DNA of 64,000 bases from an uncultured Chthoniobacterales bacterium (GTDB lineage Bacteria > Verrucomicrobiota > Verrucomicrobiia > Chthoniobacterales > CALDSX01), in NCBI GenBank assembly GCA_964652295.1, contig CAZZCL010000001.1, forward strand, positions 14,759 to 78,758. Reading direction: 5' to 3'. Below, piece by piece: positions 10,026 to 62,538 of the stretch. Numbering within the stretch: the first letter of the stretch is position 1; the number at the start of each line of letters is the position of its first letter. A model generated the notes under the pieces. That model was given only the letters and a program-made list of their open reading frames with translations. It did no database searches and was not told the DNA's origin. The position numbers and the translations under genes are program-made.

Positions 10026-10816
10026 AAGCGATTCCCATTAAGAACAGCCGCGAGATTGAGCAGATGCGCGATTCGGCGCGTCTGGCCACCTCCATTCTTG
10101 AGCGGCTTGCAGCAGCGATCGCTCCTGGAATGACGACGAAGGAAGTCGACGAAATGGCGGCCGGCCTGATGAAGGATGCCGGAGCCCGAAGCGCCTTTTT
10201 GGGCTATAAAAAATTTCCCGGCCACATCTGCATCTCGCTGAACGAAGAGGTTGTTCACGGCATCGGCGGACCGCGCCGCATTCAGTATGGCGATCTCGTC
10301 AAGCTGGACGTGGGTGTTGTCTACAATGGCTGGGTGGGGGACACGGCGACAACCGTTGCGGTCGGGCTCGTAGACGCCGAGTCGCGCGCGCTGATGGATG
10401 TGACTGAAGCGGCGCTTTACCATGCCATCGCTTACGCCCGGGAAGGACGGCGTCTTGGCGATTTGTGTGCGGCGGTTGACGATTTTGTGAGCCCCCGCGG
10501 CTATGGTGTCGTCAGGGAGTTTGTTGGTCACGGTGTGGGGCGCAAACTGCATGAGGAACCGCAAGTGCCGAATTTTGGAAAGCGCGGCACGGGACCGAAA
10601 CTGAAAGCCGGCATGATCATGTGTATTGAACCGATGATCACAGCGGGGGATCCTACCGTGCGCGTGCTCGGCGACAAATGGACGGTAATCACAGCTGACC
10701 GTTCGCTCTCGGCGCATTATGAGCACACGGTGTTGGTAACGCGTGGCGAACCTGAAATCCTCACCCTGCGCGGAGAGCGTCCTGCGCGCTCTGCGAGAAC
10801 CAGACGGGTTTCCTGA
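10022..10816 (+). CDS. map: Methionine aminopeptidase, type I
   Basis: ATGA overlap with adk. Metal-ligand context matches MetAP-I: VVHGIGG...GDLVKLDVG....GW.GD.A.T, FVGHGVGR.LHE.P.V.N, and ..IEPMI. Confidence 0.93.
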   Translation: MKAIPIKNSREIEQMRDSARLATSILERLAAAIAPGMTTKEVDEMAAGLMKDAGARSAFLGYKKFPGHICISLNEEVVHGIGGPRRIQYGDLVKLDVGVVYNGWVGDTATTVAVGLVDAESRALMDVTEAALYHAIAYAREGRRLGDLCAAVDDFVSPRGYGVVREFVGHGVGRKLHEEPQVPNFGKRGTGPKLKAGMIMCIEPMITAGDPTVRVLGDKWTVITADRSLSAHYEHTVLVTRGEPEILTLRGERPARSARTRRVS

Positions 10817-10969
10817 CTGGCAGGGTCCGGGGCCGACCCCTTTGTCCCGAACGCCCTCAGCCGCCTGCATGGAGGCGGCGGACAAGCGGCGCCGGCGGAG
10901 CATGGAGGAAGGAAGGAAGCGCGTATGGTCTTGCGTTCTCCTGCGGGTTCCCGGCAGACTTGTCGGACG

Positions 10970-11974
10970 ATGTCTTCGGATTATGACGGTGCGTGGAAAG
11001 AAGTCCTGCATGACAATCTGCGCGATGCCCTGCGGTGTTTCTTTCCGGGTGTCGAGTCGGGACTCGACTGGTCGCATCCGCCGGAGTTCCTGGAACAGGA
11101 ACTCCGCGCTCTGTCGATCGAAGGATGGAACAGGGACAACCGGGTGGATGTGCTGGTGCGGGTTGCCGGACTTGAAGGCGTGAAGCGGCTGCTCTATCTG
11201 CACTTGGAAATTCAAAGCTTCAAGGAAGCGGATTTTGCTTCCAGAGTGTTCCGCTGTTATCACGGTTTGCGCAGCGCCTGCGGGGCTGAAGTGGTGACGC
11301 TCGCGGTGCTTGCCGACCTCGATCCGCAGTGGAAACCCGCCGAGTACCGTCATGAACTGTTCGGGTGTGAAATTTTCTTCCGGTTCCCATGCTGTAAGTT
11401 GATCGAGATCCTGCCGCGCCTTGAAGGCGAGCGCTCGCTTCCGGCGCTGGCCGCGCAGGCGCAGATTGAAGCGCTGGCCACCAGCCGGAATCCGGACAGG
11501 AGATTGGCGGCACGCTGGCGGCTGACACGGCGGCTTTATGAAAGCGGCTACAGCCGCAGTGAAGTGCGGGAAGCCTTTGCGTTGCTGGCGCGCATGATGA
11601 GGCTGCCGGCGGCGGCGGCGTTGACTTTTCGGGACATGGTCATAGCCTACGAAAAAGACAACGCCATGCCATACGTGACAGACATTGAAGAGATGGCCAT
11701 CGAGAAAGGCCTGGCTCAGGGGCTTGAGCAGGGGCTTGAGCAGGGGCTTGAGCAGGGACTTGAGCAGGGACTTGAGCAGGGACTTGAGCAGGGGCGCATT
11801 GTTTCGCTGCAGGAATCCATTGTGGAAGTGCTGGCAGCACGTTTTCGCCGGGTGCCGCAAGAGTTGCGGACGAAAATCTTCGCGTTGTCCGACGCGGCGA
11901 AGCTGCAGGAGATATTGCGCGCAGCAGCGCGGTGCAACAGCCTTGAGGCGTTCGCCGCTTCGCTGGTTCTCTGA
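10970..11974 (+). CDS. Rpn/YhgA-like PD-(D/E)XK recombination-promoting nuclease / putative transposase with DUF4351-like C-terminus
   Basis: ATG 10970 inside ORF 10925..11974. N-terminus SDYDGAWKEVLHDNLRDALRCFFPGV...DWSHPPEFLEQEL. Nuclease-core-like RVDVLVRV....G..RLLYLHLEIQS. MPYVTDIEEMAIEKG is followed by a Gly-Leu-Glu-Gln repeat and a C-terminal helical tail, an architecture I recognise from cyanobacterial and other DUF4351 proteins. Confidence 0.7.
   Translation: MSSDYDGAWKEVLHDNLRDALRCFFPGVESGLDWSHPPEFLEQELRALSIEGWNRDNRVDVLVRVAGLEGVKRLLYLHLEIQSFKEADFASRVFRCYHGLRSACGAEVVTLAVLADLDPQWKPAEYRHELFGCEIFFRFPCCKLIEILPRLEGERSLPALAAQAQIEALATSRNPDRRLAARWRLTRRLYESGYSRSEVREAFALLARMMRLPAAAALTFRDMVIAYEKDNAMPYVTDIEEMAIEKGLAQGLEQGLEQGLEQGLEQGLEQGLEQGRIVSLQESIVEVLAARFRRVPQELRTKIFALSDAAKLQEILRAAARCNSLEAFAASLVL
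11708..11791 (+). repeat. Perfectly phased 12-bp tandem repeat x7 (GGNCTTGAGCAG), coding (GL[AE]Q)7
   Basis: Read directly: ggcctggctcag, then gggcttgagcag x3, then ggacttgagcag x3. In frame within the Rpn-like CDS. Confidence 0.95.
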
Positions 11975-21322: not shown

Positions 21323-22504
21323 ATGTTATCCCCGGCACCTCTTCGCGTCGCGTTAATTGGCGGTGGTTCAGGCTCATTTTTCGCAGCGCCACATCAACGC
21401 GCCGTCCATTTTGACGGCACCCGCAGAGTCGTTGCCGCGGCGCTGCGTTCCAATCCGGCAGCTGCCCTTGCCGATGCGGCCGGGTGGCCGTATCCGATCC
21501 GCGGCTATGCCAGCTACGACGAACTCATCGACGGGCAGGCGTCGTGTCCGCCTGAGGAACGCATCGATTATGCGATCGTGGTTACTCCAAACCATGCCCA
21601 TTTCGATCCCGCTTTGAAAGCTGTCAGCGCGGGGATTCCGGTTTTCTGCGAAAAACCCCTCACTCTCACCTCCCAGGAAGCGGAACGGCTGGTCGTGGCG
21701 GTGGAGAGTGCGGGCGTGCCGTTTGGGGTTGCGCATACCTATCTCGGACATTGGACTGCGCGGTTCGCACGCCATATTGTTCGTTCGGGGTTGCTTGGCG
21801 AGGTGCGTTGGGTGGACAGCTATTACATTCAGGGCTGGCTTGCCGGCAAAGTTGAAGAGTCCGGGATGCAGCAGGCCGCGTGGCGAACGGATCCTGCGAG
21901 AACCGGCATGTCCAACTGTGGCGGTGATATCGGCACACATGCGCTCATGATGCTGCGGTACGTAACCGGTCTTGAGATCGAAAGCCTGTCCGCGCAACTT
22001 GAGACCCTCGTGCCGGGGCGTGTGTTGGACGATCATTTCACCGTGTACACGCGGTTGCATGGCGGCGCGCGCGCTCTGATTCGGGCGTCTCAGATTTGTA
22101 TCGGCGCGCGGAATAATCATGGGCTCGTGGTTGCCGGAGCACGGGGGTTGCTGCGCTGGGAGCAGGAAGAACCCGAGCGGCTCACGGTTTGTCTGCCCGA
22201 CCGGCCGGAGAGAGTCTACTGGCGTGGTGCAGTCACGCCGCACGACGGCTTCCTCGGCGACGTCCCGCCGGAGTTGCTTTCGGAACCCACGCTGCCGCCC
22301 GGTCACAACGAAGGGTTTCACGATGCCCTTGCACGATTGCACCGATGTTTTGAGGAGGACGTGCGCTCGTGGAAGCACGGCGCGCACAGCTCGGCGGATG
22401 CGAGCAGATATGCTACGATTCATGACGGGCTCGTCGGGATGCGCTTTATTGAAGCGGCAGTTGAATCTTCCAAGGATAATGGCGCATGGAAATCTTTGCT
22501 ATAA
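21323..22504 (+). CDS. Gfo/Idh/MocA-family NAD(P)-dependent oxidoreductase
   Basis: N-terminal Rossmann LRVALIGGGSGSFF, D..IVVTPNHAHFDPALKAVSAGIPVFCEKPLT (the EKP motif), 393 aa. Confidence 0.85.
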   Translation: MLSPAPLRVALIGGGSGSFFAAPHQRAVHFDGTRRVVAAALRSNPAAALADAAGWPYPIRGYASYDELIDGQASCPPEERIDYAIVVTPNHAHFDPALKAVSAGIPVFCEKPLTLTSQEAERLVVAVESAGVPFGVAHTYLGHWTARFARHIVRSGLLGEVRWVDSYYIQGWLAGKVEESGMQQAAWRTDPARTGMSNCGGDIGTHALMMLRYVTGLEIESLSAQLETLVPGRVLDDHFTVYTRLHGGARALIRASQICIGARNNHGLVVAGARGLLRWEQEEPERLTVCLPDRPERVYWRGAVTPHDGFLGDVPPELLSEPTLPPGHNEGFHDALARLHRCFEEDVRSWKHGAHSSADASRYATIHDGLVGMRFIEAAVESSKDNGAWKSLL

Positions 22505-24916: not shown

Positions 24917-25327
24917 ATGGACAGCAGCCCGTTGCACAAGTTTTATCAACCCACACTTTATTTGGCTCAAACCGAGGCTCCCGCCCCGATGCCCGCCGCA
25001 CCCGGAGTTCCCGCTCAGCCGGGAGCCCCCGGCCAGCCGGCGCCTCCCCAGCCGGGGCTTGCGGACATGCTCATGCCTTTGCTGTTTATGTTCGCAATTT
25101 TCTATTTCCTGCTCATCCGACCGCAGCAGAAGAAGCAGAAAGAGCATCAAAAGCTGATTGGCTCGGTGAAATCCGGTGACCGCATCGTCACCAACGCCGG
25201 CATCCACGGCCTTGTTACCAATGTGAAAGACGCCACGGTGCTCGTGAAAGTGGCAGACAACGTGAAGATTGAGTTCGATAAAGGAGCCATTGCCTCGGTG
25301 ACCAAGGGAACCGAAGAGGCGGCTTGA
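24917..25327 (+). CDS. yajC: Preprotein translocase subunit YajC (Pro/Ala-rich N-terminal extension)
   Basis: LMPLLFMFAIFYFLLIRPQQKKQKEHQKLIGSVKSGDRIVTNAGIHGLVTNVKD..V.VKVADNVKIEFDK.AI. Start is uncertain (24917 or 24839). Confidence 0.88.
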   Translation: MDSSPLHKFYQPTLYLAQTEAPAPMPAAPGVPAQPGAPGQPAPPQPGLADMLMPLLFMFAIFYFLLIRPQQKKQKEHQKLIGSVKSGDRIVTNAGIHGLVTNVKDATVLVKVADNVKIEFDKGAIASVTKGTEEAA

Positions 25328-25410
25328 GGAAAGGGTGGCGCCCTCCGATTGGTTGGGGTTAGGCTCGCCGTGCCGTTAGCTTTCGTACAGCGTACGCCCG
25401 CAGCTTTGCA

Positions 25411-25806
25411 ATGACCACGTTGATTCTTGTGATGGTCGGTGGCGCTGTGGGCAGCGGTTTGCGTTATGGAATTTCTGCGGGGCTCGAACGAATGTTGGGC
25501 GCGGTGTTTCCCTGGGGCACCATGATGGTCAATGTGACAGGATCTTTTGCCATTGCTGCGGTCATGACGTTGCTCGGGCCATCTGGCCCCGTATTGGCTC
25601 CGGAACTGCGCGCGTTTTTGACAATGGGTGTGCTGGGTGGCTTCACAACGTTTTCCTCCTTCAGTTGGCAAACGATGGCATTGTTTGAAGATCGCCAGTT
25701 TGCGGCTGCGTGGTTTAACATTGCCGGAAGCGTAACGTTGTGTCTGCTTGCGGCGCTTGCTGGCGTATGGACCGCGCGCTGGCTGGAAGGAGGTGCATGG
25801 CGCTGA
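25411..25806 (+). CDS. crcB: Fluoride ion channel CrcB/FluC
   Basis: 131 aa with four TM segments: GGAVGSGLRYGIS...FPWGTMMVNVTGSF, and GVLGGFTTFSSFS. Confidence 0.92.
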   Translation: MTTLILVMVGGAVGSGLRYGISAGLERMLGAVFPWGTMMVNVTGSFAIAAVMTLLGPSGPVLAPELRAFLTMGVLGGFTTFSSFSWQTMALFEDRQFAAAWFNIAGSVTLCLLAALAGVWTARWLEGGAWR

Positions 25807-26159
25807 GGCAGGAACAGGAGCATGGCGGGGAGGAGGGGTGCTGCCTCCGCGTGTATATGGGGGAAACGGACCACGCCGGGCAGCGTCCTGCCTATGAACA
25901 ACTGGTGCGTCTTGCTCACGACAGGGGACTGGCTGGGGCCACCGTATTTCGCAGTCCCATGGGCTACGGAACGCACTCCCAGGTGCATACCGCGAAAGTA
26001 TTAAATCTTTCTGCGGATTTGCCTGTCGTGGTGGAGATTGTCGATGTGCGCCGCAAGATCGAGGACTTTCTACCGGTATTCCGCAGCCATTTGCCACTCC
26101 AGTTTGCAGTGATTTTACCGGTGGCAATCGTCCCGCGCGCGGGGGAAGCTGCGCCCTGA
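25797..26159 (+). CDS. DUF190 (PII-like) protein, typical crcB partner
   Basis: ATG 25797 overlaps the crcB end. Reads LRVYMGETDHAGQRPAYEQLVRLAHDRGLAGATVFRSPMGYG......H......LSADLPVVVEIVD...KIEDFL. Confidence 0.85.
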   Translation: MALRQEQEHGGEEGCCLRVYMGETDHAGQRPAYEQLVRLAHDRGLAGATVFRSPMGYGTHSQVHTAKVLNLSADLPVVVEIVDVRRKIEDFLPVFRSHLPLQFAVILPVAIVPRAGEAAP

Positions 26160-26288
26160 GCCCACGGCATAATTGGCACGGTCGGCATGCTTGCTGCCAG
26201 GCGGCCTTCATGTCACCGTTGTTTTATGAACAGATTTATAGGATGGCCGATTCAAAGTGGACAATGGTGCCCTTTCCGATGTGGTTGG

Positions 26289-40337: not shown

Positions 40338-40378
40338 GGGAGTGTAATGCTCGCTCTTGTATTCCAGATCATGTTACG

Positions 40379-41011
40379 ATGACTTTTTCCAAGAAGATGC
40401 CGGAAGCGGTCGGATTCCGGCCAGGCGACACAAAGCTGGCCCGCAGTTCGCTCGGAACGGTGCTTCTGATTGTTTCCATGGGCAAAGACCCCGAGCGCCT
40501 CACAACGGTGGTGCAGGAGCGGCTCAGGGAATTTTCGGTAGTCGCACAGCTCCTGCGTGTGCGGGGCTGGTTACCCAAAGTGGGTCGCTTGGCGGCAGAG
40601 TTCGAACGCGCCTTTGCTGGAGCGCCTGCTATCGTGATCGAAGAAGGCGGGCGCGGGGGGAAGATATCGGGAATTGCATCAGGCATTGCCGACGCCGCGC
40701 CGGATTTACCCGTGCTTGGCGTCCCCATGGCCAAACCGCTCGGCACGAAGTCTGCAGGAGGAGTGAGCGAGGGCATTTGCGACGTGAAGGACGCGGTTGA
40801 GAGCGTGGAACGCCTGATGGAATTGATGTGTGGCACGGCTTCCAACCGGTCCGTCGGTTGGTTGGCTGTGGGTGAGGCTGGCGCCCAGAATGCAGCGCTT
40901 TGCGCCATTGCGATTCTCGCCCTGAACAACCCGGTCCTGCGCCGGAAACTGGTGGCGTTCCGCAAGCGGCAGCGTGCAGGTGTTTTGAGCCAAAAGCTTC
41001 CAACAAGATGA
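40379..41011 (+). CDS. PurE (AIR carboxylase/mutase) superfamily protein with degenerate catalytic motifs
   Basis: Collinear with PurE. LLIVSMGKDPE aligns to V.IVMGSKSD, LLRVRGWLPKV to VVSAHRTPDKL, and GGRGGKISGIASG to AGGAAHLPGMIA. LPVLGVPM and VGWLAVGEAGAQNAALCAIAILA are well conserved. The SAHR His and the AAHLPG loop are not conserved. Confidence 0.65.
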   Translation: MTFSKKMPEAVGFRPGDTKLARSSLGTVLLIVSMGKDPERLTTVVQERLREFSVVAQLLRVRGWLPKVGRLAAEFERAFAGAPAIVIEEGGRGGKISGIASGIADAAPDLPVLGVPMAKPLGTKSAGGVSEGICDVKDAVESVERLMELMCGTASNRSVGWLAVGEAGAQNAALCAIAILALNNPVLRRKLVAFRKRQRAGVLSQKLPTR

Positions 41012-42024
41012 TCACGGAAATCGTCTCCGGTTCGGAGGGTCGCGCGCGGATGATAGAAACGTTTCGGGCGGGACAAATTGCGGCTGTGCCCACCGAAACG
41101 GTTTACGGTCTTGCTGGAGCGGCGTTTGACGCCATGGCGGTGGCGCGCATTTTCGAGGCGAAACAACGACCCGCTTTCGATCCGTTGATTGTGCATGTGC
41201 CGGGAATTGAATGGCTGTGGCAAATTGCGCGACGATCCGACCTGGCAAACGCGACACTTGCCGAAGTGTTGGCGGAGCATTTTTGGCCGGGTCCGCTGAC
41301 GATTGTGCTGCCCGCACGGGATTGTGTGCCCTCGATTGTGCGGGCGGGTCTGAGCACAGTGGCCATCCGACAGAGTGTGCATCCGGATTTTCAGGCGATT
41401 GTGGAAGGCTTTGGCGCTCCGCTGGCTGCACCGAGTGCGAATCGTTTTGGCCGCCTCAGTCCCACCAGTGCGGTGGACGTCATGAAGGAATTGGAAGGAA
41501 AGATTCCGTTGGTTTACGATGGAGGGCGGTCGCGGCATGGAGTTGAGTCGACTATTGTGCGTCCGGAGGAGGGAGGAGTGGAGATCCTGCGCCCCGGTCC
41601 GATCGTGCGGGAGCGGCTTCAACAGGTTTGTCCGATTCTGGAGCGACCAACTGGAAAGGAAGGCCGCTTTCCGCAGGTGCCGGGGCAGCTGGCGTCGCAT
41701 TACGCTCCGGCGACGCCGCTAGTCCTGTTGGCGCCGAATCCGGGGGCAGGGGAGGCAGTGCGTGCCGCAGGCGGGCGGCGTGCCGCTTTGCTTGTGTACG
41801 ATGCAGCGCAGGTTTGGCAAGGGGCTGCGGCGGTTTTCGAGCAGATTCGTTGGCTCACAGGTTCCCATGACCCCGTTGAAGCGGCGGCAAACCTGTTTGG
41901 AGTGCTCCGCGAGCTGGACGAAAGCGGGGTGAAAATCGTAGTGGCGTTTCCGCCGCCGGAGAGAGGGGTTGGCGTCGCAATTCTGGATCGGCTGCGTCGG
42001 GCAGCCGCAACCGCCGAGCGATGA
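41008..42024 (+). CDS. tsaC: L-threonylcarbamoyladenylate synthase (Sua5/YwlC long form: YrdC + Sua5 domains)
   Basis: ATG 41008 overlaps the purE-like stop (ATGA). Reads FRAGQIAAVPTETVYGLAG.AFD..AV.RIFEAK.RP..DPLIVHV, with SANRFG and a C-terminal Sua5 domain. Confidence 0.9.
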   Translation: MITEIVSGSEGRARMIETFRAGQIAAVPTETVYGLAGAAFDAMAVARIFEAKQRPAFDPLIVHVPGIEWLWQIARRSDLANATLAEVLAEHFWPGPLTIVLPARDCVPSIVRAGLSTVAIRQSVHPDFQAIVEGFGAPLAAPSANRFGRLSPTSAVDVMKELEGKIPLVYDGGRSRHGVESTIVRPEEGGVEILRPGPIVRERLQQVCPILERPTGKEGRFPQVPGQLASHYAPATPLVLLAPNPGAGEAVRAAGGRRAALLVYDAAQVWQGAAAVFEQIRWLTGSHDPVEAAANLFGVLRELDESGVKIVVAFPPPERGVGVAILDRLRRAAATAER

Positions 42025-46025: not shown

Positions 46026-46895
46026 TCAAGCTTCCGGAGGCGGTGTCAGCAGTCGGCGGCGGCCTTCAGCCAGTATTGCCCGCTCCTTGCGGGAAAGGGC
46101 GGCTGGTCCCTCGCGATGCAATTTCTCAAGCAGTGGATCGACAAACTCCGCAATGTAATCCCCGGCTGGCAGGACTGCGCGCCGATGGCATTCCGCACGC
46201 CAGGCAGACCAACGCCGTTCCGGCCATGTCGGCCCCGTGAGTCCTGCAAACCGCAAATAAAGCCAGGCCACAGCGCAAACTACGCCGGAGGAAGCAAGCG
46301 TCGCGCCAGCCTGCCTGAATGGCGCAATGCCACTGCCGAATTTGGCGGCAGCAAGCGCAACCGCCACCGCTGCGATTCCTGCCAGACACGCCGTCTTGGT
46401 GCGGACAATCCATGGCCCTGCAGGAAGCGGCATGAGCGGCAGGACTGCAGCGGCGCATGTCAATGCTGCAAGGGCAGGGGGGCCGGCCCCGCGTACCAGC
46501 GCCGCAGGATCCAGAGCGAGTTCCACCAGAGATCCAAGCGCGGTGCAGGAGAGCAGAACGACGGCCCAGTGCATTGAGCTCATTGCCGGTTCGACCAGCC
46601 GTCCCGCAAGCACTGCGACCCCCCCGCATAAAAAGAACAGGAGGACGCCGGAAGGCGCCAGCACGCATGTGAGCGGTTGGTACAACAGCCCTTGGCGCAA
46701 CCCGGCGCCGCTCAATGCCATCCATGCGTCGAGCGTTGAGAGGCCGCGCAGACTCAGAACGAGCGCGCAGGCTGCCGATCCGACGAGCGCCGCAGCAAAC
46801 CAGTTCGTAACACACTGAGGGCAGCTGGGCTTGTCACCGGAAACAGGTCGTAAACGGCGCAAGAAACGCTGCATTGAGGCAAAGGACTTTTTCAT
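46026..46895 (-). CDS. Polytopic membrane protein; rhomboid-like layout suspected but no catalytic GxSG seen
   Basis: 289 aa with about six hydrophobic segments. An N-terminal CPQC is present. YQPLTCVL...LLFFLCGG sits where rhomboids carry WR..T..F.H, and GAGPPALAALT sits where they carry GASGA. The cytoplasmic C-terminal tail is helical. Family call is weak. Confidence 0.4.
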   Translation of the reverse strand: MKKSFASMQRFLRRLRPVSGDKPSCPQCVTNWFAAALVGSAACALVLSLRGLSTLDAWMALSGAGLRQGLLYQPLTCVLAPSGVLLFFLCGGVAVLAGRLVEPAMSSMHWAVVLLSCTALGSLVELALDPAALVRGAGPPALAALTCAAAVLPLMPLPAGPWIVRTKTACLAGIAAVAVALAAAKFGSGIAPFRQAGATLASSGVVCAVAWLYLRFAGLTGPTWPERRWSAWRAECHRRAVLPAGDYIAEFVDPLLEKLHREGPAALSRKERAILAEGRRRLLTPPPEA

Positions 46896-46995
46896 GATCC
46901 TGCCAAGTCAATGCGTCGGCCACATCCCGGAGTGTCCGTCGGGCATGCCGCGTGGACATCCAACCCGCGGTATGCCGCCTTTTTCACCACGCGCC

Positions 46996-47805
46996 TCAAC
47001 GGGTCCAGCGCCCTCCGGGTGTGCTTAGGACAGGAATGTATCCCGGAGAATAATCGGTTTTGCCTATCGCACCGATCATCGGAATACCGACCGCTGTTCG
47101 CCAGTGTTTGCTCATGCTTTCGCCGGTATGACACCCCCAGCTCTTGATGAATGCACGCCGGTGAAACGCGTCGGCATTGATCCTGTTTAACTCGCCTTCG
47201 TGCAGCCACGCTTTGCTGGCGCTGTCGATCAGGCTGCTGTAGTCGAACATGAAACACGCCTTGTTGGAGTGGCCAAAATATTCGAAGCCGGTAATGCGAA
47301 GGGAACGCCGGTGCGGTGCGCGATTGATGTAATTGAGAAGCTGCGGAGTTGTGTCGAAGTAGATCAGTCGCAGCTGGTATTTGTCGCGGACCGATTCCAC
47401 AAGCGCGAGCAGGTCGCGCTGATCCTGTGCGCTGCGCGCAACGTAGCCCGGACGATAAACCAGCCAGCCGATCGGATATTCGGTGCCGCGCTGCTCGCGC
47501 AACGCCTGGATGCGGACTCTGGCTGTCCGAATGAAATTTCCCCACCAACGATCGTGTGGGACCTGCTTGTATTTTTCCCAGCGGATCAAGGATGGTCCGC
47601 CACTGACTACGATGTATTCGCCCCACGGATAATTGCCCTGCCGCGCAGTATCGGCCAGTGCCCCCGGCGCGTGGAGCAGAAGAGCAGCCAGCAGCGCGAC
47701 GGCGGATTGCGCGGGCAATGCCACGCGGCGATGAACGCCCTCTGACCCCGCAATGCCCATTGTCCTTAGCAGCGCACTCCACGCACACGGGAGCCGTCTA
47801 TCCAT
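46996..47805 (-). CDS. Hypothetical exported protein
   Basis: Probable start ATG 47760 (MGIAGSEGVHRRVALPAQSAVALLAALLLHAPGALA, signal-like). No family recognised. Contains FGHSNKA and WGCHTGES segments. Confidence 0.6.
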   Translation of the reverse strand: MDRRLPCAWSALLRTMGIAGSEGVHRRVALPAQSAVALLAALLLHAPGALADTARQGNYPWGEYIVVSGGPSLIRWEKYKQVPHDRWWGNFIRTARVRIQALREQRGTEYPIGWLVYRPGYVARSAQDQRDLLALVESVRDKYQLRLIYFDTTPQLLNYINRAPHRRSLRITGFEYFGHSNKACFMFDYSSLIDSASKAWLHEGELNRINADAFHRRAFIKSWGCHTGESMSKHWRTAVGIPMIGAIGKTDYSPGYIPVLSTPGGRWTR

Positions 47806-53446: not shown

Positions 53447-54420
53447 TCAAGCCCGGTCTGCTTTAGAGGCCGCCGGCAGCGAGGCGTTTGGGGATTCCAT
53501 ACTAGCTTCGGATGCAAGCGAAGCCCCCAGCTGATTCCGAATCCAGATCGTCCGTTCGAATACCGATGTCATGTCACACAATGGGGTCCGCTGCGTCGCA
53601 TCGAGTGGCTCGCTCCGCTCCTGCAATCCCGCACGCGCGGCTCGCATCATCTCTCCGCGGTCTCCGGTCATCCCGACCAGGATCTCGATGCCGAGCAAAC
53701 CGCGGGAGGCCATGGCGTCGATCGCAACAAGAGACCCGCCGTCCAGACTTTCCACCAACTGGCTCTGGAGTTCCTCCATCGCCGAAGAGAGGCTAGAGGC
53801 TCGCTCTCCCGACACCAGGTGCCATGTGCTGTGCTCCAACGCTTCGAGATGGCTCTGACGCCGCTCCAATTTTAGGACGCGCTCGGCGGCGTCTACCGTG
53901 GCGCCCGCTTCCAGAATATCTGTCAGACATGTTCGGATCTCGCGGGCAAGACGCCCCAGCGACAGATGCGTCGTAGCGGGATCGGGGTTCGTGCCCACCA
54001 GCGCGCCTTGACGCGAGCCATGCAGAAGATGCGGGATTAACCCCAGCAGCCGTTGCTGCTGCTGCTCCAAAAAATCCAGCGCGGTGGCAGGATCCTCGAG
54101 AATCTCGTCCAGCAGGTATTGAGGGCGGCGATGTCGTCCGCTGCCACAAAAACCAGAAGGGTTGCCCCGATGTTCGCCCATCCCGCGACCGGCAGGGGCC
54201 GCGCCAGTTTGATGAGCCCCCCCGGTACGAATCCCGACATAATCAACGCCACAGCGTTGGCGCTCTGCGTGATCGCCCCAAAGACGAATTCCGCCAGCGC
54301 ACTTAGACCCGGGATCCTCATCCATTTCGCCAGCACCCTGCGGAACTTCCGTTGTGCCATCTGCTGGAGATGGGTTTTTAATCCACGCAACCCTATGAAA
54401 AAAAGCCCAGTCCCGCGCAC
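53447..54420 (-). pseudogene. Degraded Na+/Pi-cotransporter (NaPi-II + PhoU-like tail) gene: internal deletion plus frameshift
   Basis: ORF 54037..54420 reads GLFFIGLRGLKTHLQQMAQRKFRRVLAKW...FVFGAITQSANAVALIMSGF...GWANIGAT. This parallels the first NaPi repeat (G.FLFGM..M..GL....G...R..L, then ..QSSSAT....G., then GANIGTT) but with the QSSSAT motif degraded. A different frame (53447..~54130) carries a PhoU-like helical C-terminal domain. Total length is about half of an intact family member. Confidence 0.5.
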
Positions 54421-54827
54421 AGCAAGGCAAGGGTTTCCACTGCCGACGGCACAAGCACCGCACGTGATCAGAACGCTATCCCTCGCGCAAACCGAATCCG
54501 GCCATCCTCAGCGCTCTGCACAAGGTGAAATGGGTGGCGGAGGCTTCGGGGCGTTCCCCAGCTCTGATGCCGCCTTCACGGGCGCACTGAAAGTTGTTGG
54601 ATGACCCCGTTGGCTCCTTTTCCGAAGGGTTCAGCGGTTTGTCCTTGCCCAAGCTGCAGATGGACGATTGCGTTGCGTAAATCACACCCCGGCGGATTTC
54701 CTGTCATCGAACTTTGCACTTGAAACACGGGGCTCTCGCCGCAAAGCATCTAATCCACCGCATCTTCCGGTCCGAACCGTTTTTTTTCAGTTCTCTCAGC
54801 TCAACACCTTTTTCATCATCCATTCCA

Positions 54828-56590: not shown

Positions 56591-57367
56591 CTAGTCGAAG
56601 CGAACGTTGTCAACCCGTTGCACATCCTTCCTGCCGAGTCCTGCGGTCCGAGACACAATGCCGTAGTAAAGAAAACCTCCGGAAGGCACAGGTAATGTGA
56701 CCTGGTTCAGTTCCCAATCCGGGGCTGCAGAATTGAATGACGCACCGTTCACAAGCACCGTGTGGGCAATGACGGTGGGACCGCCAGTGCGTGGTCCGCC
56801 AGTATCGAACAAGTTAAGATTGAACTCCTCGTTGACCCCGTAGAAATAGACTTCCAGTGTTTTTCCTGCACTGTTCACGACATCGAATCTGAGTGTGACA
56901 TCGCCTTGCGTCTGAAAGTTATCTCTTAGAATCTGGGCCATGTTGTCGGCACCGGCAATGTCGGCGTAGGCGAAGCGAGTTTCCGTATCCGGGTTCCAGC
57001 GTGAGCCGGCGCCGCGCACAACCCATCCTGCGCCAGTGTGCTTGTTTTGAAGAATCCAACCGTTTCCGATTATGAAGTCGGCGTCGAACGTGCCGTCCAC
57101 AATGGCAAAGGCGCCCGGGCAGACGCTTCCAGAACGAGGTAGGATCACGGCAATGTGGGCAAAAGTCCGGTCGTTTGCCGCGGCATCAATCCGAAACCTG
57201 GCGCGACCAGGGGCAGATGTTGTAGCGAGCGAGGCACCGCGCCCCATCGTCGTTGTGCCAGTCCACAAGCCAAAATCTGCGCTTGTCTCGAAAGAAAATC
57301 GAGAAGGAGAAACCGTATCCGGCAGAACATCGAGAGAGACCTCGAGTGTGCCAGCGCCCGCACGCAC
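56591..57367 (-). CDS. Hypothetical beta-rich protein (possible fragment; GTG start, no signal peptide visible)
   Basis: 258-aa ORF with Gly/Thr/Asn-rich beta-sandwich-like composition, ending VQRVDNVRFD. No family recognised. The reading frame stays open upstream of the annotated start. Confidence 0.45.
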   Translation of the reverse strand: MRAGAGTLEVSLDVLPDTVSPSRFSFETSADFGLWTGTTTMGRGASLATTSAPGRARFRIDAAANDRTFAHIAVILPRSGSVCPGAFAIVDGTFDADFIIGNGWILQNKHTGAGWVVRGAGSRWNPDTETRFAYADIAGADNMAQILRDNFQTQGDVTLRFDVVNSAGKTLEVYFYGVNEEFNLNLFDTGGPRTGGPTVIAHTVLVNGASFNSAAPDWELNQVTLPVPSGGFLYYGIVSRTAGLGRKDVQRVDNVRFD

Positions 57368-57870: not shown

Positions 57871-58818
57871 TCACCGTTCAGTAAGACACGAGGCAGCGGG
57901 TGGCTGCTTGCGCTGGCTGGCGAGTGCGCGCCGCGGGCTTTCTCCGTAGGCGGCTGTGAAACTTTTATAGAATTGTGCATAGCTCCCGAAGCCGGCGGCG
58001 AAAGCGGCCTCAAGCATGGTGGGCCGCACCGGCCTGCGTGCCTCTTCCCAGAATCGGCTTAGCCGCAGGGAATTCCTGTATCGAGTCAGCGGGATGCCGA
58101 CCTGCGACGCGAACAAGCGTGACAAGCGCGCCGGGCTGAGGCCGCATTTCCTGCCAAGGGATTGCAGACCGCAATCGGAGGACGAATTCTCCAGCAGTGA
58201 TAGTGCGCGTTCGACTGCGGGATGCAGGGCGACAGCGGGCGTGCCGACGCGTGCTCCGAGCTGATGAGCCCAGCAGAGCAGGAGGAGATGATGCAGGCCG
58301 GCGTTGAGAGCGTCCGGATCGTTATGGCGATAACGAAAATCAGAGCCGTCGCCGTAACCTGCCTCACGATTCAGCAGATCGGGATCGAGCGAACCCAGCA
58401 TGACCCGCTCCATCAGGCTTTTAAGAAACTGAAAATCCTCAAAGTTCAGTTGTGTACAAAGGACTCCCGGCTTTGTGGGGCGCCGACGTTTCAATTCGCG
58501 GTACTGTGACGATCGACAGAATTGCTGGATAAGTCCCGGTTTGAACACGGCCACGTAGTACGCCGCGTCGTCGGACCGGTCGACAAGGCGGTGCTCCTGC
58601 GCGGGAAACATCCAAAGTAATGTTCGCGCGGGGAACCGGAACCGTCCCTCACCGGTGACATAGGTCACATTTCCTTTGGACACGACATTGAGCTCAAGTT
58701 CGTCGTGGCGATGGCTGCGCAGACTCGGAGGATTCCTGACATTCTCCGCGAGGAAAAGAAAGCCGTCGTACTCTTTATCCAGCTTGAGATCGACCTGCAT
58801 GCGACAAAAAACGAACAC
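57871..58818 (-). CDS. AraC-family transcriptional regulator (cupin-like sensor + HTH)
   Basis: N-terminal HRHDELELNVV...FPAQEHRL (cupin). C-terminal double HTH L..L.R.CGLSPARLSRLFASQVGIPLTRYRNSLRLSRF, then AAFAAGFGSYAQFYKSFTAAYG.SP. Confidence 0.88.
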   Translation of the reverse strand: MFVFCRMQVDLKLDKEYDGFLFLAENVRNPPSLRSHRHDELELNVVSKGNVTYVTGEGRFRFPARTLLWMFPAQEHRLVDRSDDAAYYVAVFKPGLIQQFCRSSQYRELKRRRPTKPGVLCTQLNFEDFQFLKSLMERVMLGSLDPDLLNREAGYGDGSDFRYRHNDPDALNAGLHHLLLLCWAHQLGARVGTPAVALHPAVERALSLLENSSSDCGLQSLGRKCGLSPARLSRLFASQVGIPLTRYRNSLRLSRFWEEARRPVRPTMLEAAFAAGFGSYAQFYKSFTAAYGESPRRALASQRKQPPAASCLTER

Positions 58819-58869
58819 TTTTTGGCATTCTGCGAAAGGATTATTCTTCGGTTCGATACATATTAAATT

Positions 58870-60198
58870 ATGACCGAGCTGTCCCCCGCCCAGCCGACCC
58901 TAACCCCAGCTTCCTCCCCCGTGTCTCCTTCGGCTCTGGCGTCATCCAAACGGCGCGTCCGCGATGCGATCGAACACCGCACGCCAGACCGGGTGCCGAT
59001 GGATTTTGGCGGGTCGTTCATTACGGGCATGCATTGCAGCGTGGTTGAAGGGTTGCGCCATCATTACGGGCTGAGTGGTCGTCCTGTGAAGATCTGCGAT
59101 CCCTACCAGATGCTGGGTTGGATTGAGGACGATCTCGCGGACGCTCTTGGCATCGATACCATACAACTTCTGCCGTACCGCACCATTTTCGGCTTCCCCA
59201 ATCAGGGCTGGAAACCCTGGATGACTCCGTGGGGTCAGGAGGTGCTGGTTTCCTCGCATTTTGAAGTTGAGGAACGTGCCGAGGGGATCGCGATTTTTCC
59301 ACAGGGCGATCGTTCGGCGTCAGCCAGCGGTTTGATGCCGAGGACGGGCTTTTTCTTCGACACCATCGTCCGGCAGCCGGCGTTGGATGAAGACAATCTC
59401 GATGTGGAAGACAACCTCGAAGAATTCGCTGCGATGTCAGAGGATGAGGAAGCCTACTGGCGTCGGAGCGCAGGAGCACTCCGGGGGTCAGATCGCGCGG
59501 TGGTTGCCCATCTTAATGGCACCGGCCTCGGGGATATCGCACTCGTGCCTGCTCCGTTCCTCAAATCTCCGCGCGGGGTTCGGGATATCACGCAATGGTA
59601 CATGACGATCGCGTCCGACCCGGATTTTGTGATGGAACTGTTCGACCGACAGGTCGCGATCGCCCTCGGCAATCTCGAACGGCTCAACGCCGCCGTTGGG
59701 GATGCGATCGACGTGGTTGTTGTCTGCGGCACGGATTTTGGCACGCAGGAATCGACATTCTGTTCCGTGGAAACGTTCGAGCGGCTCTGGGCACCGCATT
59801 ACCGACGCCTGAACGATTGGATTCATGCAAACACATCCTGGAAGACCTTCAAACACTCGTGCGGCGCGGTGGAGCCGCTCGTGGAAAGCGTGATCGCGTG
59901 CGGATTCGACATTCTTAACCCTGTTCAGTGCTCGGCGCATGGGATGGCGCCCGAGGGGCTGAAAGCGCGTTACGGCCCCCGTCTCGCATTCTGGGGTGGG
60001 GGAGTGAACACGCAAAAAACCCTGCCTTTCGGAAGCCCCCGCGAGGTGCGCGAGGAAGTGCTGTCGCGCTGCCGGATTTTCTCGGTCAGTGGGGGATTCA
60101 TTTTTAATGCCATCCACAATGTGCAGGCCTTGAGTCCGATCAAGAACGTGGTCGCAATGATCGACGCCGTGCACGAGTTCAATGCTGCGGGCGGCTGA
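58870..60198 (+). CDS. Uroporphyrinogen-decarboxylase (URO-D)-fold family protein (MtaA/CmuA-like superfamily), function unknown
   Basis: 442 aa. Reads PDRVPMDFGG, DFGTQESTFCSVETFERLWAPHYRRLNDWIHANT.WKTFKHSCGAVEPLVESVIACGFDILNPVQ, and RLAFWGGGVNTQKTLPFGSPREVREEV. This pattern is typical of the URO-D TIM-barrel family. Confidence 0.65.
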   Translation: MTELSPAQPTLTPASSPVSPSALASSKRRVRDAIEHRTPDRVPMDFGGSFITGMHCSVVEGLRHHYGLSGRPVKICDPYQMLGWIEDDLADALGIDTIQLLPYRTIFGFPNQGWKPWMTPWGQEVLVSSHFEVEERAEGIAIFPQGDRSASASGLMPRTGFFFDTIVRQPALDEDNLDVEDNLEEFAAMSEDEEAYWRRSAGALRGSDRAVVAHLNGTGLGDIALVPAPFLKSPRGVRDITQWYMTIASDPDFVMELFDRQVAIALGNLERLNAAVGDAIDVVVVCGTDFGTQESTFCSVETFERLWAPHYRRLNDWIHANTSWKTFKHSCGAVEPLVESVIACGFDILNPVQCSAHGMAPEGLKARYGPRLAFWGGGVNTQKTLPFGSPREVREEVLSRCRIFSVSGGFIFNAIHNVQALSPIKNVVAMIDAVHEFNAAGG

Positions 60199-60258
60199 CT
60201 CCCATTGGCAAACACCGCCACGATCGTTTTCACTGCAAGCCGAACACAACACCCTTTG

Positions 60259-62538
60259 ATGAGCGAACTCACTGCCGTCCTTACCAAACCGGCGAAGCAT
60301 CTGGATTACAGTCTCACCGGCGAGAACTCAAAGCGCGCCGTAGAACTCGGGCTGGCTGAAGCCGACTGGTATCAATCGCCGGTGCCACGCGGCGAACTGC
60401 GCAAGTTGCTGGAGCGCCGCGACGGACCAGCCATCCGCGACACGGTTATATGGTTCTTCCTACTTGGCCTCACCGGCTGGGCAACTGCCGCGCTTTGGGG
60501 CACGTGGTGGGCTGTTCTGCCGTACTTGGCTTACTGCGTCCTGTACGCCACCGCCTCCGACTCCCGTTGGCACGAAGCCGGTCATGGTACGGCGTTTAGG
60601 ACGGATTGGATGAACAATCTGTTGTACGAGATTGCGTCATTCATGGTTATGCGGGAGTCGGTCGTTTGGCGCTGGAGCCATACCCGGCATCACAGCGACA
60701 CCATCATTGTAGGGCGCGATCCGGAGATTCAGGTGCAGCGTCCGCCGAACCTGCGCGAGCACTTCCTGAGTTTGTTCGCGGTCGGCGCTTACCGCGGGTA
60801 TTTTCCGGGTGTCTTTCGTCATGCTGCGGGAAAGATGTCTGACAGCGAGCGCACATTCATTCCCGAAAGCGAGTTCCCAAAAATCTATCGGAATGCGCGC
60901 ATGATTCTTGGCATCTACGCAGCGGCGTTCGCGCTTGCGGCCGCGTTGCAATCCTGGCTGCCGATCTTCCTGATCGTGCTGCCCCATCTGTTCGGCACAT
61001 GGCTGATGATCGTCCACAACACCCCGCAGCACGCGGGGCTTGCCGAAAACGTGCTCGACCACCGGTTGAACTGTCGCACGGTGTACATGAACCCGGCCAG
61101 TCGATTCCTCTATTGGAACATGAACTATCATGTGGAGCATCACATGTTCCCCTTGGTGTCGTTTCATTCGCTGAAGAAGCTGCATGAACTCATCAAGGAC
61201 GATTGCCCACCGCCGTACTTATCGATTGGCGCGGCATGGAAGGAGATTCTGCCAACGCTGCTGCGGCAGGCGAGGGACCCGGCCTATCATGTCAAGCGCA
61301 GGTTGCCACCGCCGAAAGCGCGCCGTGTCGACGGATTGGGCAGCGGCGACGCGCAACCGGACGCCGACGGCTGGATCGAGGTGTGCGCAGCCGCCGATCT
61401 CGGAACAGCCGACGTGCTGCGCTTCGACCATGGAAGGAAGACGTTCGCGCTGGTTCGCGATGAAGCGGATGGGCTCTACGCCATAGACGGCATCTGCACT
61501 CATGGCAACACGCATCTTGCGGACGGGCTGGTGAAGGAGGGCCAGATCGAGTGCCCCAAACACAACGGCCGCTTTCATCTGGCGGACGGATCACCCGCGC
61601 GGGCGCCCATCTGCCGTGGCCTGTGCGTTTACCCGATTGAAGATCGCGGCGGTCGTTTGTGGCTCAACATTGCAAAACCTGGAGGCAGCGGCGTGCGCCA
61701 GCAGGTCGCGGCAAGCTTCCGCGTGGTTTCCACCAGGAACGTGGCCACATTCATCCGGGAACTGGTCTTGGAACCGGAGGGCGGCACAGCGGTCGGATTC
61801 TCGCAAGGCGACTACATGCAGCTCGACATTCCCGCGTATGACGAGATCCGGTTTTCCAATCTCGATGTGCCCGAGCCCTATGCCGCCGTTTGGCGTCGCC
61901 AGCATGTGTTCGATCTTGTCGCCCGAAATCCGGGCGGAGCCAGGCGCAACAATTACTCCATCGCCAGCAATGCGGCGTATGACCGCACCCTGATGTTCAA
62001 CGTCCGCATCGCCACGCCACCGCCGGGGCAGGATTGTCCTCCAGGCGTGGGATCGGCGTATGTCTGGTCGCTGAAGCCCGGCGACGTCATGACTGCGGTC
62101 GGACCCTTCGGCGATTTTCATATCAAGCCCACGCAGAAGGAAATGATCTACATCGGAGGTGGGGCGGGCATGGCTCCATTGCGGGCGCATCTTTCGCACC
62201 TGTTGGAAACGGAAGGGAGTGCTAGAAAGATCGCTTTCTGGTATGGGGCGCGCTCAAGGCAGGAGCTGTACTACACCGATTACTTCGAATCGCTCGCAGC
62301 CAGACATACAAACTTCACGTTTTACACTGCGCTATCCACCCCGTTGGAGGAAGACAATTGGTCCGGTCTGACGGGATTTATCCATGAGGTCGTGCTCGAC
62401 CATTGCCTGGAATCGCATCCTAAGGTTCAGGCCGTAGAGTTTTATCTCTGTGGACCACCCATGATGGTCAAGGCATGCACGAAAATGCTTGGAGACCTCG
62501 GCGTAACCGCCTCGCAGATTGCGTACGACGAATTCTAA
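60259..62538 (+). CDS. Three-domain fusion: membrane fatty-acid-desaturase/hydroxylase-like diiron domain + Rieske [2Fe-2S] domain + FNR/NqrF-like FAD/NAD(P)H reductase domain
   Basis: ATG 60259 inside ORF 60205..62538 (759 aa). His boxes HEAGH (60571-60585), HTRHH (60679-60693) and HVEHH (61129-61143) lie among four or more hydrophobic helices. Rieske motif CTH-x17-CPKH (61495-61563). The reductase part has RNNYSIAS (FAD), GGGAGMAPLRAHL (NAD(P)H) and YLCGPPMMV. Confidence 0.85.
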   Translation: MSELTAVLTKPAKHLDYSLTGENSKRAVELGLAEADWYQSPVPRGELRKLLERRDGPAIRDTVIWFFLLGLTGWATAALWGTWWAVLPYLAYCVLYATASDSRWHEAGHGTAFRTDWMNNLLYEIASFMVMRESVVWRWSHTRHHSDTIIVGRDPEIQVQRPPNLREHFLSLFAVGAYRGYFPGVFRHAAGKMSDSERTFIPESEFPKIYRNARMILGIYAAAFALAAALQSWLPIFLIVLPHLFGTWLMIVHNTPQHAGLAENVLDHRLNCRTVYMNPASRFLYWNMNYHVEHHMFPLVSFHSLKKLHELIKDDCPPPYLSIGAAWKEILPTLLRQARDPAYHVKRRLPPPKARRVDGLGSGDAQPDADGWIEVCAAADLGTADVLRFDHGRKTFALVRDEADGLYAIDGICTHGNTHLADGLVKEGQIECPKHNGRFHLADGSPARAPICRGLCVYPIEDRGGRLWLNIAKPGGSGVRQQVAASFRVVSTRNVATFIRELVLEPEGGTAVGFSQGDYMQLDIPAYDEIRFSNLDVPEPYAAVWRRQHVFDLVARNPGGARRNNYSIASNAAYDRTLMFNVRIATPPPGQDCPPGVGSAYVWSLKPGDVMTAVGPFGDFHIKPTQKEMIYIGGGAGMAPLRAHLSHLLETEGSARKIAFWYGARSRQELYYTDYFESLAARHTNFTFYTALSTPLEEDNWSGLTGFIHEVVLDHCLESHPKVQAVEFYLCGPPMMVKACTKMLGDLGVTASQIAYDEF

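Follow-up and report, generated by a model that had tools for sequence, protein, structure and literature searches.

An AraC-linked module encoding a predicted self-sufficient membrane diiron oxygenase, probably an O-demethylase of methylated sugars or cyclitols, in an uncultured Chthoniobacterales bacterium

We identified a three-gene module in a 64,000-nucleotide stretch of the genome of an uncultured Chthoniobacterales bacterium (assembly GCA_964652295.1, contig CAZZCL010000001.1, positions 14,759 to 78,758; this whole stretch is referred to as the window). The module consists of a gene for an AraC-family regulator and, divergently oriented, a gene for a protein of the URO-D fold (URO-D-like) followed by a gene for a 759-amino-acid protein in which a membrane diiron domain, a Rieske [2Fe-2S] ferredoxin and an NqrF-type FAD/NAD(P)H reductase are fused (Table 1). 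The fusion protein is probably a self-sufficient O-demethylase of a methylated sugar or cyclitol, because its first two domains appear orthologous to MocD and MocE, unfused orthologous operons contain one-carbon and inositol-type genes, and the fused gene has sugar-related neighbors. The module would be an AraC-switched island for the demethylation of a methyl-ether carbohydrate, the candidates being a free methyl-aldose and a methyl-cyclitol. From these comparisons we infer the O-demethylation reaction, the substrate class, the electron path and a substrate shared by the two enzymes.

The original prediction of a three-domain architecture, made from the DNA sequence alone, was borne out by profile searches, in which each domain scored above its Pfam gathering threshold. 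FA_desaturase (PF00487) matched amino acids 82-324 over positions 2-250 of the 253-position model (E = 2e-34, 120 bits, cutoff 29.7), Rieske (PF00355) matched amino acids 372-459 (E = 2.7e-16, 59.7 bits, cutoff 20.3) and NAD_binding_1 matched amino acids 632-741 (E = 8e-18). The motifs named earlier were found again, namely the histidine boxes HEAGH (105-109), HTRHH (141-145) and HVEHH (291-295), the Rieske motifs CTH (413-415) and CPKH (432-435), and the reductase motifs RNNYS (563-567), GGGAGMAP (633-640) and CGPP (731-734). In the Rieske domain, 16 residues separate C413-T-H415 from C432-P-K-H435, which fits the pattern CXH-X15-17-CXXH. The histidine boxes likewise fit the HX3-4H, HX2-3HH and HX2-3HH pattern of diiron ligands, and the reductase motifs fit the RxYS (FAD), GxGxxP (NAD(P)H) and C-terminal CGP signatures of FNR-like modules. 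Every cofactor-ligand residue, including those of the Rieske cluster, is invariant in an alignment of 47 homologues, as are the eight histidines of the histidine boxes together with H258 and H268. The electron chain from NAD(P)H via FAD and Rieske cluster to the diiron center in a single polypeptide, as proposed earlier, is plausible from this architecture and these ligands. More than 120 full-length proteins with 68-76% identity share the same three domains. The possibility that the fusion gene is an assembly chimera of separate genes was excluded, because the open reading frame is continuous and the same architecture recurs in hundreds of independent assemblies.

Hydropathy analysis showed hydrophobic segments at approximately amino acids 62-81 and 212-254 of the fusion protein. 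Its AlphaFold2 model has long helices at 59-78, 83-108, 203-230 and 234-259, predicting four transmembrane helices in two hairpins. In this model, and in line with the usual desaturase topology, the histidine boxes and the C-terminal extension would lie on the same, cytoplasmic side. Foldseek searches with the model gave matches for the FNR module only (TM-score 0.9, 44-46% identity, NqrF FAD domain). In sequence searches of the PDB the FNR module matched the NqrF FAD domain (7qty, 4e-80), and T4moF was also matched.

Many homologues of the fusion protein, P0008, P0013 and P0017 among them, are named 'NADH:ubiquinone reductase (Na+-transporting) subunit F' in NCBI and JGI, and the NCBIfam model for NqrF (TIGR01941) scored 307 bits, above its cutoff of 295. 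The match is however limited to the FAD/NAD part (model positions 133-403). The transmembrane helix and plant-type 2Fe-2S domain of NqrF are replaced by the 365-amino-acid diiron membrane domain and the Rieske domain, and other nqr genes are absent from the window and from the sampled neighborhoods. An identity as subunit F of the Na+-translocating NADH:quinone reductase is ruled out by this domain architecture. Because the C-terminal 272 amino acids alone carry TIGR01941 past its cutoff, the NqrF naming of the fused family is a systematic mis-annotation.

A tblastn search of plasmid sequences using the membrane domain as a query gave 287 records, mostly from Rhizobium and Sinorhizobium. Stand-alone proteins annotated as 'fatty acid desaturase family protein' and encoded on S. 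meliloti pSymB, M. huakuii pMHb and Acidiphilium pACMV1 are 54-56% identical over about 95% of the membrane domain of the fusion; here and below, identities are to MocD-like and MocE-like plasmid-encoded proteins, not to the authentic MocD of S. meliloti L5-30. On these three plasmids, the unfused genes lie in the order desaturase-like gene, Rieske ferredoxin gene and gene for an FAD-dependent ferredoxin reductase of about 410 amino acids. The Rieske gene of Acidiphilium is annotated 'MocE family', and the unfused MocE-like ferredoxins share 42-48% identity with the Rieske part of the fusion. No similarity was found between the FNR module and the ~410-amino-acid FAD reductases of the unfused operons. 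Because the domain identities are high and the FNR module is unlike the unfused reductases, these sequence comparisons indicate that the fusion consists of orthologues of MocD and MocE joined to a non-homologous, NqrF-type reductase.

The genes that follow the three unfused genes differ between these plasmids. In M. huakuii they are a PanB-like gene, purU and folD. The purU/folD set for folate-linked one-carbon oxidation classically accompanies formaldehyde-releasing demethylases. The PanB-like gene, annotated as '3-methyl-2-oxobutanoate hydroxymethyltransferase', lies directly after the MocDEF-like genes on both pSymB (L088:11963-12763) and pMHb (L089:11730-12530), and its product may handle formaldehyde or methylene-tetrahydrofolate and not pantothenate. 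In Acidiphilium a TIM-barrel protein, three Gfo/Idh/MocA dehydrogenases and sugar-phosphate isomerases are encoded after the three genes, together with a LacI regulator. Homologues of mocDEF in Rhizobium mesoamericanum were induced by a root exudate in which pinitol was the most abundant component. As recounted in later papers, the MocDEF 'ferredoxin oxygenase complex' is genetically required for catabolism of 3-O-methyl-scyllo-inosamine (Bahar et al., 1998, 2000, cited in PMC10107442 and PMC5132102). No substrate could be named for the fusion protein in the original prediction; the protein is not an orphan but has kin in the MocDEF-type oxygenases, and oxidative demethylation, one of the reactions listed at the time, is the one that these kin favor. 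An already characterized enzyme of this architecture was not found in the literature.

The surroundings of the fused gene in other genomes were analyzed by extracting the open reading frames of 80 genome loci, clustering them and identifying recurrent families. A scan with one genome per species had yielded 595 relatives, chiefly in Verrucomicrobiota and Acidobacteriaceae, and the neighborhood counts were taken from the best 80 loci of these; they are lower bounds, because contig ends cut many loci. The best 80 loci comprise 40 from Verrucomicrobiota, 29 from Acidobacteriota (mostly Acidobacteriaceae and Terracidiphilus) and six from Bacteroidota, including the cultured Winogradskyella sediminis DSM 28134, and among the remaining ones are one Kiritimatiellaeota, one Phycisphaerae and one Verminephrobacter. 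A xylose-isomerase-like TIM barrel of about 305 amino acids is coupled immediately downstream of the fusion in 28 of the 80 loci, and an aldose 1-epimerase is encoded immediately upstream in 25. Other recurrent neighbors are an AraC orthologue (18-19 loci), an MFS sugar transporter (12 loci), a short-chain dehydrogenase/reductase (eight loci) and the URO-D-like gene [6-10 loci, of which six carry true orthologues (at least 49% identity)]. Genes for GH78 rhamnosidases, sulfatases and glycoside hydrolases of families GH2, GH3, GH9, GH31 and GH127 lie nearby on longer metagenomic contigs, as do a sulfatase maturase and a Gfo/Idh/MocA dehydrogenase. The epimerase neighbor suggests that the substrate or the product is a free aldose, although the substrate may instead be a methyl-cyclitol. 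The TIM barrel of the fused loci is distantly homologous to the one encoded after the Acidiphilium operon.

Members of this TIM-barrel family (cluster C4, e.g., L028:12225-13142) are about 285-305 amino acids long, match AP_endonuc_2 with an E-value of about 1e-3 and often overlap the stop codon of the fusion gene. Further copies were found at L093:12662-13519, L142:4464 and L151:987, and the family also occurs beside modules of URO-D-like, corrinoid protein and MtaB genes. At another locus (L004:2757-8215), a fused homologue lies beside a gene for a bacterial microcompartment shell protein, and a URO-D gene comes directly after it on the downstream side of the fusion. The set also includes genes for a dihydrodipicolinate synthase-like aldolase, an Amidohydro_2 protein, a short-chain dehydrogenase/reductase, an altronate/galactarate dehydratase-like protein and an RraA-like protein, resembling sugar-acid or deoxy-sugar catabolism.

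A role in lipid or hydrocarbon metabolism, as a fatty-acid or sphingolipid desaturase, an AlkB-like hydroxylase or a carotenoid oxygenase with its own redox partners, might be expected from the Pfam family name FA_desaturase and has a precedent in a three-domain AlkB fusion. The Delta(10) desaturase model DesB of NCBIfam gave a weak match as well, but its score is far under the cutoff (37.7 bits, cutoff 500). Lipid or alkane genes are not recurrent among the neighbors, and the MocD-like orthologues sit in sugar or cyclitol operons with LacI regulators. Such a role is therefore very unlikely.

The protein encoded by the first gene downstream of the divergent spacer was assigned to URO-D (PF01208) by Pfam on the basis of its C-terminal half only (amino acids 236-437, model positions 158-346, E = 6.6e-11). 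Sequence searches against the PDB, with the single sequence or a profile, gave no significant match. A structure-based search with its AlphaFold2 model (mean predicted local distance difference test 82, predicted TM-score 0.85) identified the methylcobamide:CoM methyltransferase MtaA (4ay8/4ay7, E = 6e-12) as the best fold match, followed narrowly by true UroDs and then by MetE. The invariant H329-S-C331 (HSCG) aligns with the HICG zinc motif of MtaA in a weak sequence alignment (E = 0.29), the third zinc cysteine of MtaA aligns with the invariant H416, and C401 is at least 90% conserved. The NCBIfam models for MtaA/CmuA scored far below their cutoffs (NF040654, 29.8 against 400; TIGR01463, 25.2 against 235.4), so URO-D-like would represent a distinct family within the superfamily. 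The NCBIfam HemE model did not match and no heme-biosynthesis context was found. An RQAGR-type motif, in UroD the N-terminal substrate-binding arginine motif, is absent from the sequence.

Among 50 loci of this family of at least 6 kb, an adjacent B12-binding corrinoid protein is encoded in 11, the activase RACo in seven, DUF1638 in eight, a second URO-D protein in about ten, MtaB in four and the diiron fusion in five. Other recurrent neighbors are a CUT2-type sugar ABC transporter, an MFS sugar transporter, GH2 and a MetH-type homocysteine methyltransferase domain. Full corrinoid sets were found at six loci (L031, L040, L077, L078, L091 and L106). The set at L091 comprises a B12-binding protein, URO-D-like, an MtaA-like URO-D protein, DUF1638 and RACo. 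At L106 a divergent AraC gene is followed by genes for a B12-binding protein, URO-D-like, a second URO-D protein, CobW, DUF1638, RACo, methylenetetrahydrofolate reductase and a pterin-binding methyltransferase, with GH120 alongside. Known members of the UroD superfamily include corrinoid methyltransferases that carry out O-, S- and halide demethylation (PMC10418091). Because MtaA is the top fold match, the HxC motif is invariant and B12-binding protein, RACo and MtaB genes are neighbors, URO-D-like is predicted to represent a corrinoid-dependent methyltransferase family of the MtaA/O-demethylase superfamily. A decarboxylase identity was rejected in view of the missing RQAGR motif, the half-length Pfam match and the corrinoid-gene neighbors. 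Of the two roles first suggested for this protein, decarboxylation thus fell away, whereas methyl transfer stood, although within a B12 system.

Two further observations concern this family. DUF1638 is encoded directly upstream of RACo in 8 of the 50 URO-D-like loci and in all four fusion loci with corrinoid genes (examples are L091:10303-11067, L106:12631-13350 and L031:4234), which suggests an accessory role of DUF1638 in corrinoid methyltransferase systems. A third type of setting for URO-D-like is seen at L092:7017-11501, where genes for an SRPBCC protein (Polyketide_cyc2) and a Zn-dependent alcohol dehydrogenase come after the AraC orthologue and URO-D-like, and where no gene for the fusion or for a corrinoid protein lies within 8 kb.

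Comparison of the two sets of loci indicated how the two enzymes are related. Of the six fusion loci with a URO-D-like orthologue, four (L031, L040, L077 and L078) carry the corrinoid protein, an MtaB-like protein, DUF1638 and RACo, against none of the 74 fusion loci lacking the orthologue. At L031 one strand encodes, in this order, the corrinoid protein, MtaB-like, URO-D-like, DUF1638, RACo, the epimerase, the fusion and the TIM barrel, and L093 is similar. At L142 and L151 the TIM-barrel partner lies beside URO-D-like, corrinoid protein and MtaB genes in the absence of a fusion gene. Sensor domains of the AraC regulators at fusion-only, URO-D/corrinoid-only and combined loci show 48-68% identity, suggesting that a single AraC orthogroup controls either module or both.

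The original prediction held that the oxygenase acts first and that the URO-D-fold enzyme then decarboxylates its product or takes a methyl group from it. The two genes lie adjacent on the same strand with a 60-nucleotide gap next to one AraC gene, and URO-D-fold families include decarboxylases. However, the URO-D-like gene is present in only 6-10 of the 80 fusion loci, which also led us to reject it as an obligatory partner of the fusion; the pairing is not constant, and the usual partners are the aldose epimerase and the TIM barrel. The URO-D-like family in turn lacks the fusion in 45 of 50 loci and travels with corrinoid protein, RACo and MtaB. Its best fold match is MtaA, its HxC motif aligns with that of MtaA, the RQAGR-type motif is missing, and no methyl group would be left to transfer after oxidative demethylation. 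We therefore regard a sequential pathway as quite improbable. As a minority partner from a corrinoid-linked family, the URO-D-like enzyme is probably not a downstream step, but a parallel B12-dependent route. The simplest interpretation, which we hold to be about as likely as not, is that the two modules act on one and the same methylated substrate, one via O2 and the other via B12. We tentatively suggest that Verrucomicrobiota and Acidobacteriota possess two unrelated demethylation routes for the same methylated sugar under one AraC sensor, sometimes within a single operon (L031 and L093). It is conceivable, at a similarly low level of confidence, that the B12 route consists of URO-D-like, a corrinoid protein, RACo and MtaB-like or pterin-binding partners, and that the window contains the regulator and one enzyme of each route.

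In the mechanism proposed for the O-demethylase, NAD(P)H would reduce FAD in the C-terminal NqrF-like module, and electrons would be passed singly via the Rieske [2Fe-2S] cluster to a diiron center held by the three histidine boxes on the cytoplasmic face of the four-helix membrane domain. An activated diiron-oxygen species would hydroxylate the O-methyl carbon, after which the hemiacetal would collapse into a free sugar hydroxyl and formaldehyde. URO-D-like would handle the same methyl group without oxygen, using a corrinoid protein encoded elsewhere in the genome, and AraC would sense the shared substrate or a close derivative of it.

Several observations weigh against O-demethylation as outlined here. 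The best NCBIfam model for amino acids 372-469, MocE family TIGR02377, scored 102.6 bits, below its cutoff of 136.15. The demethylation step was reportedly assigned to MocDEF on genetic grounds, and no in vitro assay of the fused family or of any MocD-type enzyme was found in the literature. Formaldehyde-detoxification or folate genes are not recurrent among the top neighbor clusters of the fused loci. In the 64-kb window, tblastn gave no matches for a corrinoid protein, RACo, DUF1638, MtaA/MtaB-like proteins, an epimerase or a TIM barrel, and a sugar transporter is likewise absent. The AlphaFold2 model of the fusion has good domains, but its predicted TM-score is 0.52 and confidence is low in the histidine-box loops and linkers. 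For the B12 route, URO-D-like may be either the substrate-side (MT1) or the acceptor-side (MT2) methyltransferase; the gene order corrinoid protein, MtaB-like, URO-D-like resembles MtaC-MtaB-MtaA.

Some of this evidence also bears on the alternative that the fusion protein oxidizes a ring C-H of a carbohydrate or cyclitol, and not the O-methyl group, delivering a keto or unsaturated sugar to the TIM barrel or epimerase with no methyl group removed. Enzymes of the FA_desaturase family catalyze desaturation, hydroxylation and other oxidations, the sugar context alone does not specify demethylation, and the lack of recurrent one-carbon genes in the fused loci fits ring oxidation. We consider it unlikely nonetheless, as the nearest characterized relatives, MocDEF, act in methyl-ether catabolism, an unfused orthologous operon contains purU and folD, and the recurrent pairing of the fusion with a corrinoid methyl-transfer module suggests that a methyl group is what the two have in common.

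Among known systems, MocDEF is closest to the fusion by descent, ferr_ferrR_AlkB by design and a cytochrome P450 system by proposed function. MocDEF and the fusion share an FA_desaturase-family membrane hydroxylase and a MocE-like Rieske ferredoxin, both occur in a carbohydrate or cyclitol context with TIM-barrel and Gfo/Idh/MocA neighbors, and the substrate of the fusion, like that of MocDEF, is presumably an O-methyl ether. They differ in that MocDEF consists of three proteins and has a ~410-amino-acid, FAD-dependent reductase of the glutathione-reductase type, a LacI or MocR regulator and rhizobial hosts, whereas the fusion is one protein with an NqrF-type FNR module, an AraC regulator and hosts in Verrucomicrobiota and Acidobacteriota. 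The frequent aldose epimerase of the fused loci suggests a methyl-aldose rather than the inosamine of MocDEF. The three-domain, self-sufficient alkane monooxygenase ferr_ferrR_AlkB has been shown to be active (Nie et al., 2014; Williams et al., 2021; reviewed in PMC8918992) and, like the fusion, is a histidine-box membrane diiron hydroxylase fused to both electron partners and mis-annotated in databases. Its partners are N-terminal and include a plant-type ferredoxin, and it belongs to the AlkB branch with an alkane substrate; the fusion has the order hydroxylase, Rieske, FNR and belongs to the MocD branch in a sugar-gene context. As of the same review (PMC8918992), no ferredoxin-fused enzyme of the desaturase family had been reported. 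In marine Bacteroidota, a P450 with a ferredoxin and a ferredoxin reductase demethylates 6-O-methyl-D-galactose and has been characterized biochemically and structurally (PMC6292453, PMC10033563, PMC9400963). This system carries out the type of reaction proposed for the fusion, oxidative O-demethylation of a methylated monosaccharide from polysaccharides with release of formaldehyde, and both lie among glycoside hydrolase and sulfatase genes. The P450 system is however a soluble heme-thiolate enzyme of three components, and the membrane diiron enzyme is unrelated to it.

URO-D-like resembles the corrinoid systems OdmABCD/Vdm of Acetobacterium, MtoABCD and MtaABC in its fold, for which MtaA is the best match, and in an HxC motif that aligns with that of MtaA. 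A further resemblance is that its orthologues lie in operons with genes for a B12-binding protein, a RACo-type activase, an MtaB-like protein, a pterin-binding methyltransferase and methylenetetrahydrofolate reductase. URO-D-like differs from MtaA in the third zinc ligand, an invariant histidine instead of cysteine. It occurs in Verrucomicrobiota and Acidobacteriota with sugar transporters and glycoside hydrolases nearby, whereas the corrinoid systems are associated with aromatic or methylamine metabolism; no corrinoid protein is encoded within the 64 kb of the window. XylM is a histidine-box membrane diiron hydroxylase reduced by an FNR-type reductase, and T4moC is a Rieske ferredoxin able to feed a diiron center. 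XylM/XylA and T4moC/T4moF are separate proteins acting on aromatic substrates and the fusion is a single polypeptide; the ferredoxin carried by XylA is of the plant type, and the diiron hydroxylase of T4mo is soluble and forms a four-helix bundle, both unlike the fusion.

An exhaustive search clustered at 50% identity indicated how the fused family relates to other proteins. The three-domain form collapses to essentially one full-length representative (P0242, 760 amino acids, 59% identity). Two-domain desaturase::Rieske proteins of 456-519 amino acids lacking the FNR module (34-55% identity; P0245, P0248, P0258, P0261, P0263, P0266, P0298 and P0335 are examples) are more diverse than the three-domain form and may be evolutionary intermediates. 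Many cluster representatives are unfused hydroxylases of 320-370 amino acids. In P0345, P0361, P0364, P0382 and P0387 (about 615-620 amino acids) an NqrF-like FNR module at approximately amino acids 343-619 follows an unidentified N-terminus of about 340 amino acids, and these proteins appear from their sequences to be another fusion using the same reductase module.

The three open reading frames of the module were present as originally described, including the 51-bp divergent spacer and the 60 nucleotides between URO-D-like and fusion gene, and the spacer is indeed AT-rich (31% GC compared to 59% for the window). The AraC protein has an N-terminal cupin/AraC_binding sensor domain (amino acids 34-107, E = 6.4e-10, 39.3 bits) and a C-terminal HTH_18 domain (amino acids 223-297, E = 1.6e-13, 51.2 bits), both above the Pfam cutoff, and the proposed AraC control of the module is consistent with the gene layout. 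Searches for a sigma-70-like site, a terminator and repeats gave nothing above shuffled controls in the module and the 51-bp spacer. The program-called open reading frame of the fusion starts at TTG 60205, and homologues begin at ATG 60259. AraC starts at GTG 58818 or at an ATG near 58800, the latter being more likely. URO-D-like may start at GTG 58921, giving 425 amino acids, as the start of its homologues lies about 23 residues further on and the model shows disorder over residues 1-21.

Table 1. Coordinates of the AraC/URO-D-like/fusion module and of the domains and ligand motifs of the fusion protein (positions in the window; strand as annotated).
Feature	Position	Strand	Remarks
AraC-family regulator gene	57871..58818	-	Pfam HTH_18 and AraC_binding
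Divergent spacer, 51 bp, 31% GC	58819..58869	.	Presumed shared regulatory/promoter region, from gene layout only
URO-D-like gene, 442 amino acids	58870..60198	+	Pfam URO-D
Fusion gene, 759 amino acids	60259..62538	+	Diiron membrane domain::Rieske::NqrF-type FNR
Membrane diiron domain, amino acids 1-365	60259..61353	+	FA_desaturase family, MocD-like
Histidine boxes of diiron domain	60571-60585, 60679-60693, 61129-61143	+	
Rieske [2Fe-2S] ferredoxin domain, amino acids 372-472	61372..61674	+	
Rieske ligands C413/H415 and C432/H435	61495-61503 and 61552-61563	+	
NqrF-type FAD/NAD(P)H (FNR-like) module, amino acids 488-759	61720..62535	+	

In the window the module is isolated amid housekeeping genes (secY, groES/EL, dnaK, tsf and asnB). 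A GFO/IDH/MOCA-family oxidoreductase gene [21323-22504 (+)] stands alone at 35 kb from the module and nothing ties it to the module; enzymes of this type elsewhere accompany MocDEF-like operons. Long open reading frames of 258-621 amino acids without a Pfam match were found at 40369-41700 (-), 46892-47788 (-), 53447-54463 (-), 56591-57367 (-), 513-1535 (+), 9995-11860 (-) and 25147-26211 (-). The one at 56591-57367 (258 amino acids) sits just upstream of the module. Some of these may be shadow open reading frames of the 59% GC sequence.

What is new here is the fused architecture and its sugar context, while the chemistry would extend that of MocDEF. Many sugars of plants, mosses and algae are protected from breakdown by methyl ethers, and to our knowledge the only characterized carbohydrate O-demethylase is the three-component P450 system of marine Bacteroidota. 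A single-gene membrane diiron demethylase, if this reading is true, would fill a gap in carbon-cycle enzymology. At least about 600 species-level genomes of Verrucomicrobiota, Acidobacteriota and Bacteroidota from soil, peat, freshwater and marine environments encode members of the fusion family, and the reading would correct the systematic annotation of these proteins as 'NqrF'. It would also offer a one-protein C-H oxidation system for biocatalysis that requires no added redox partners. The repeated occurrence of the B12 methyltransferase module under the same regulator predicts sugar demethylation with and without oxygen. If true, this would be the first corrinoid-dependent O-demethylation of a carbohydrate, and it would represent an oxic/anoxic design for polysaccharide degraders living at redox interfaces.

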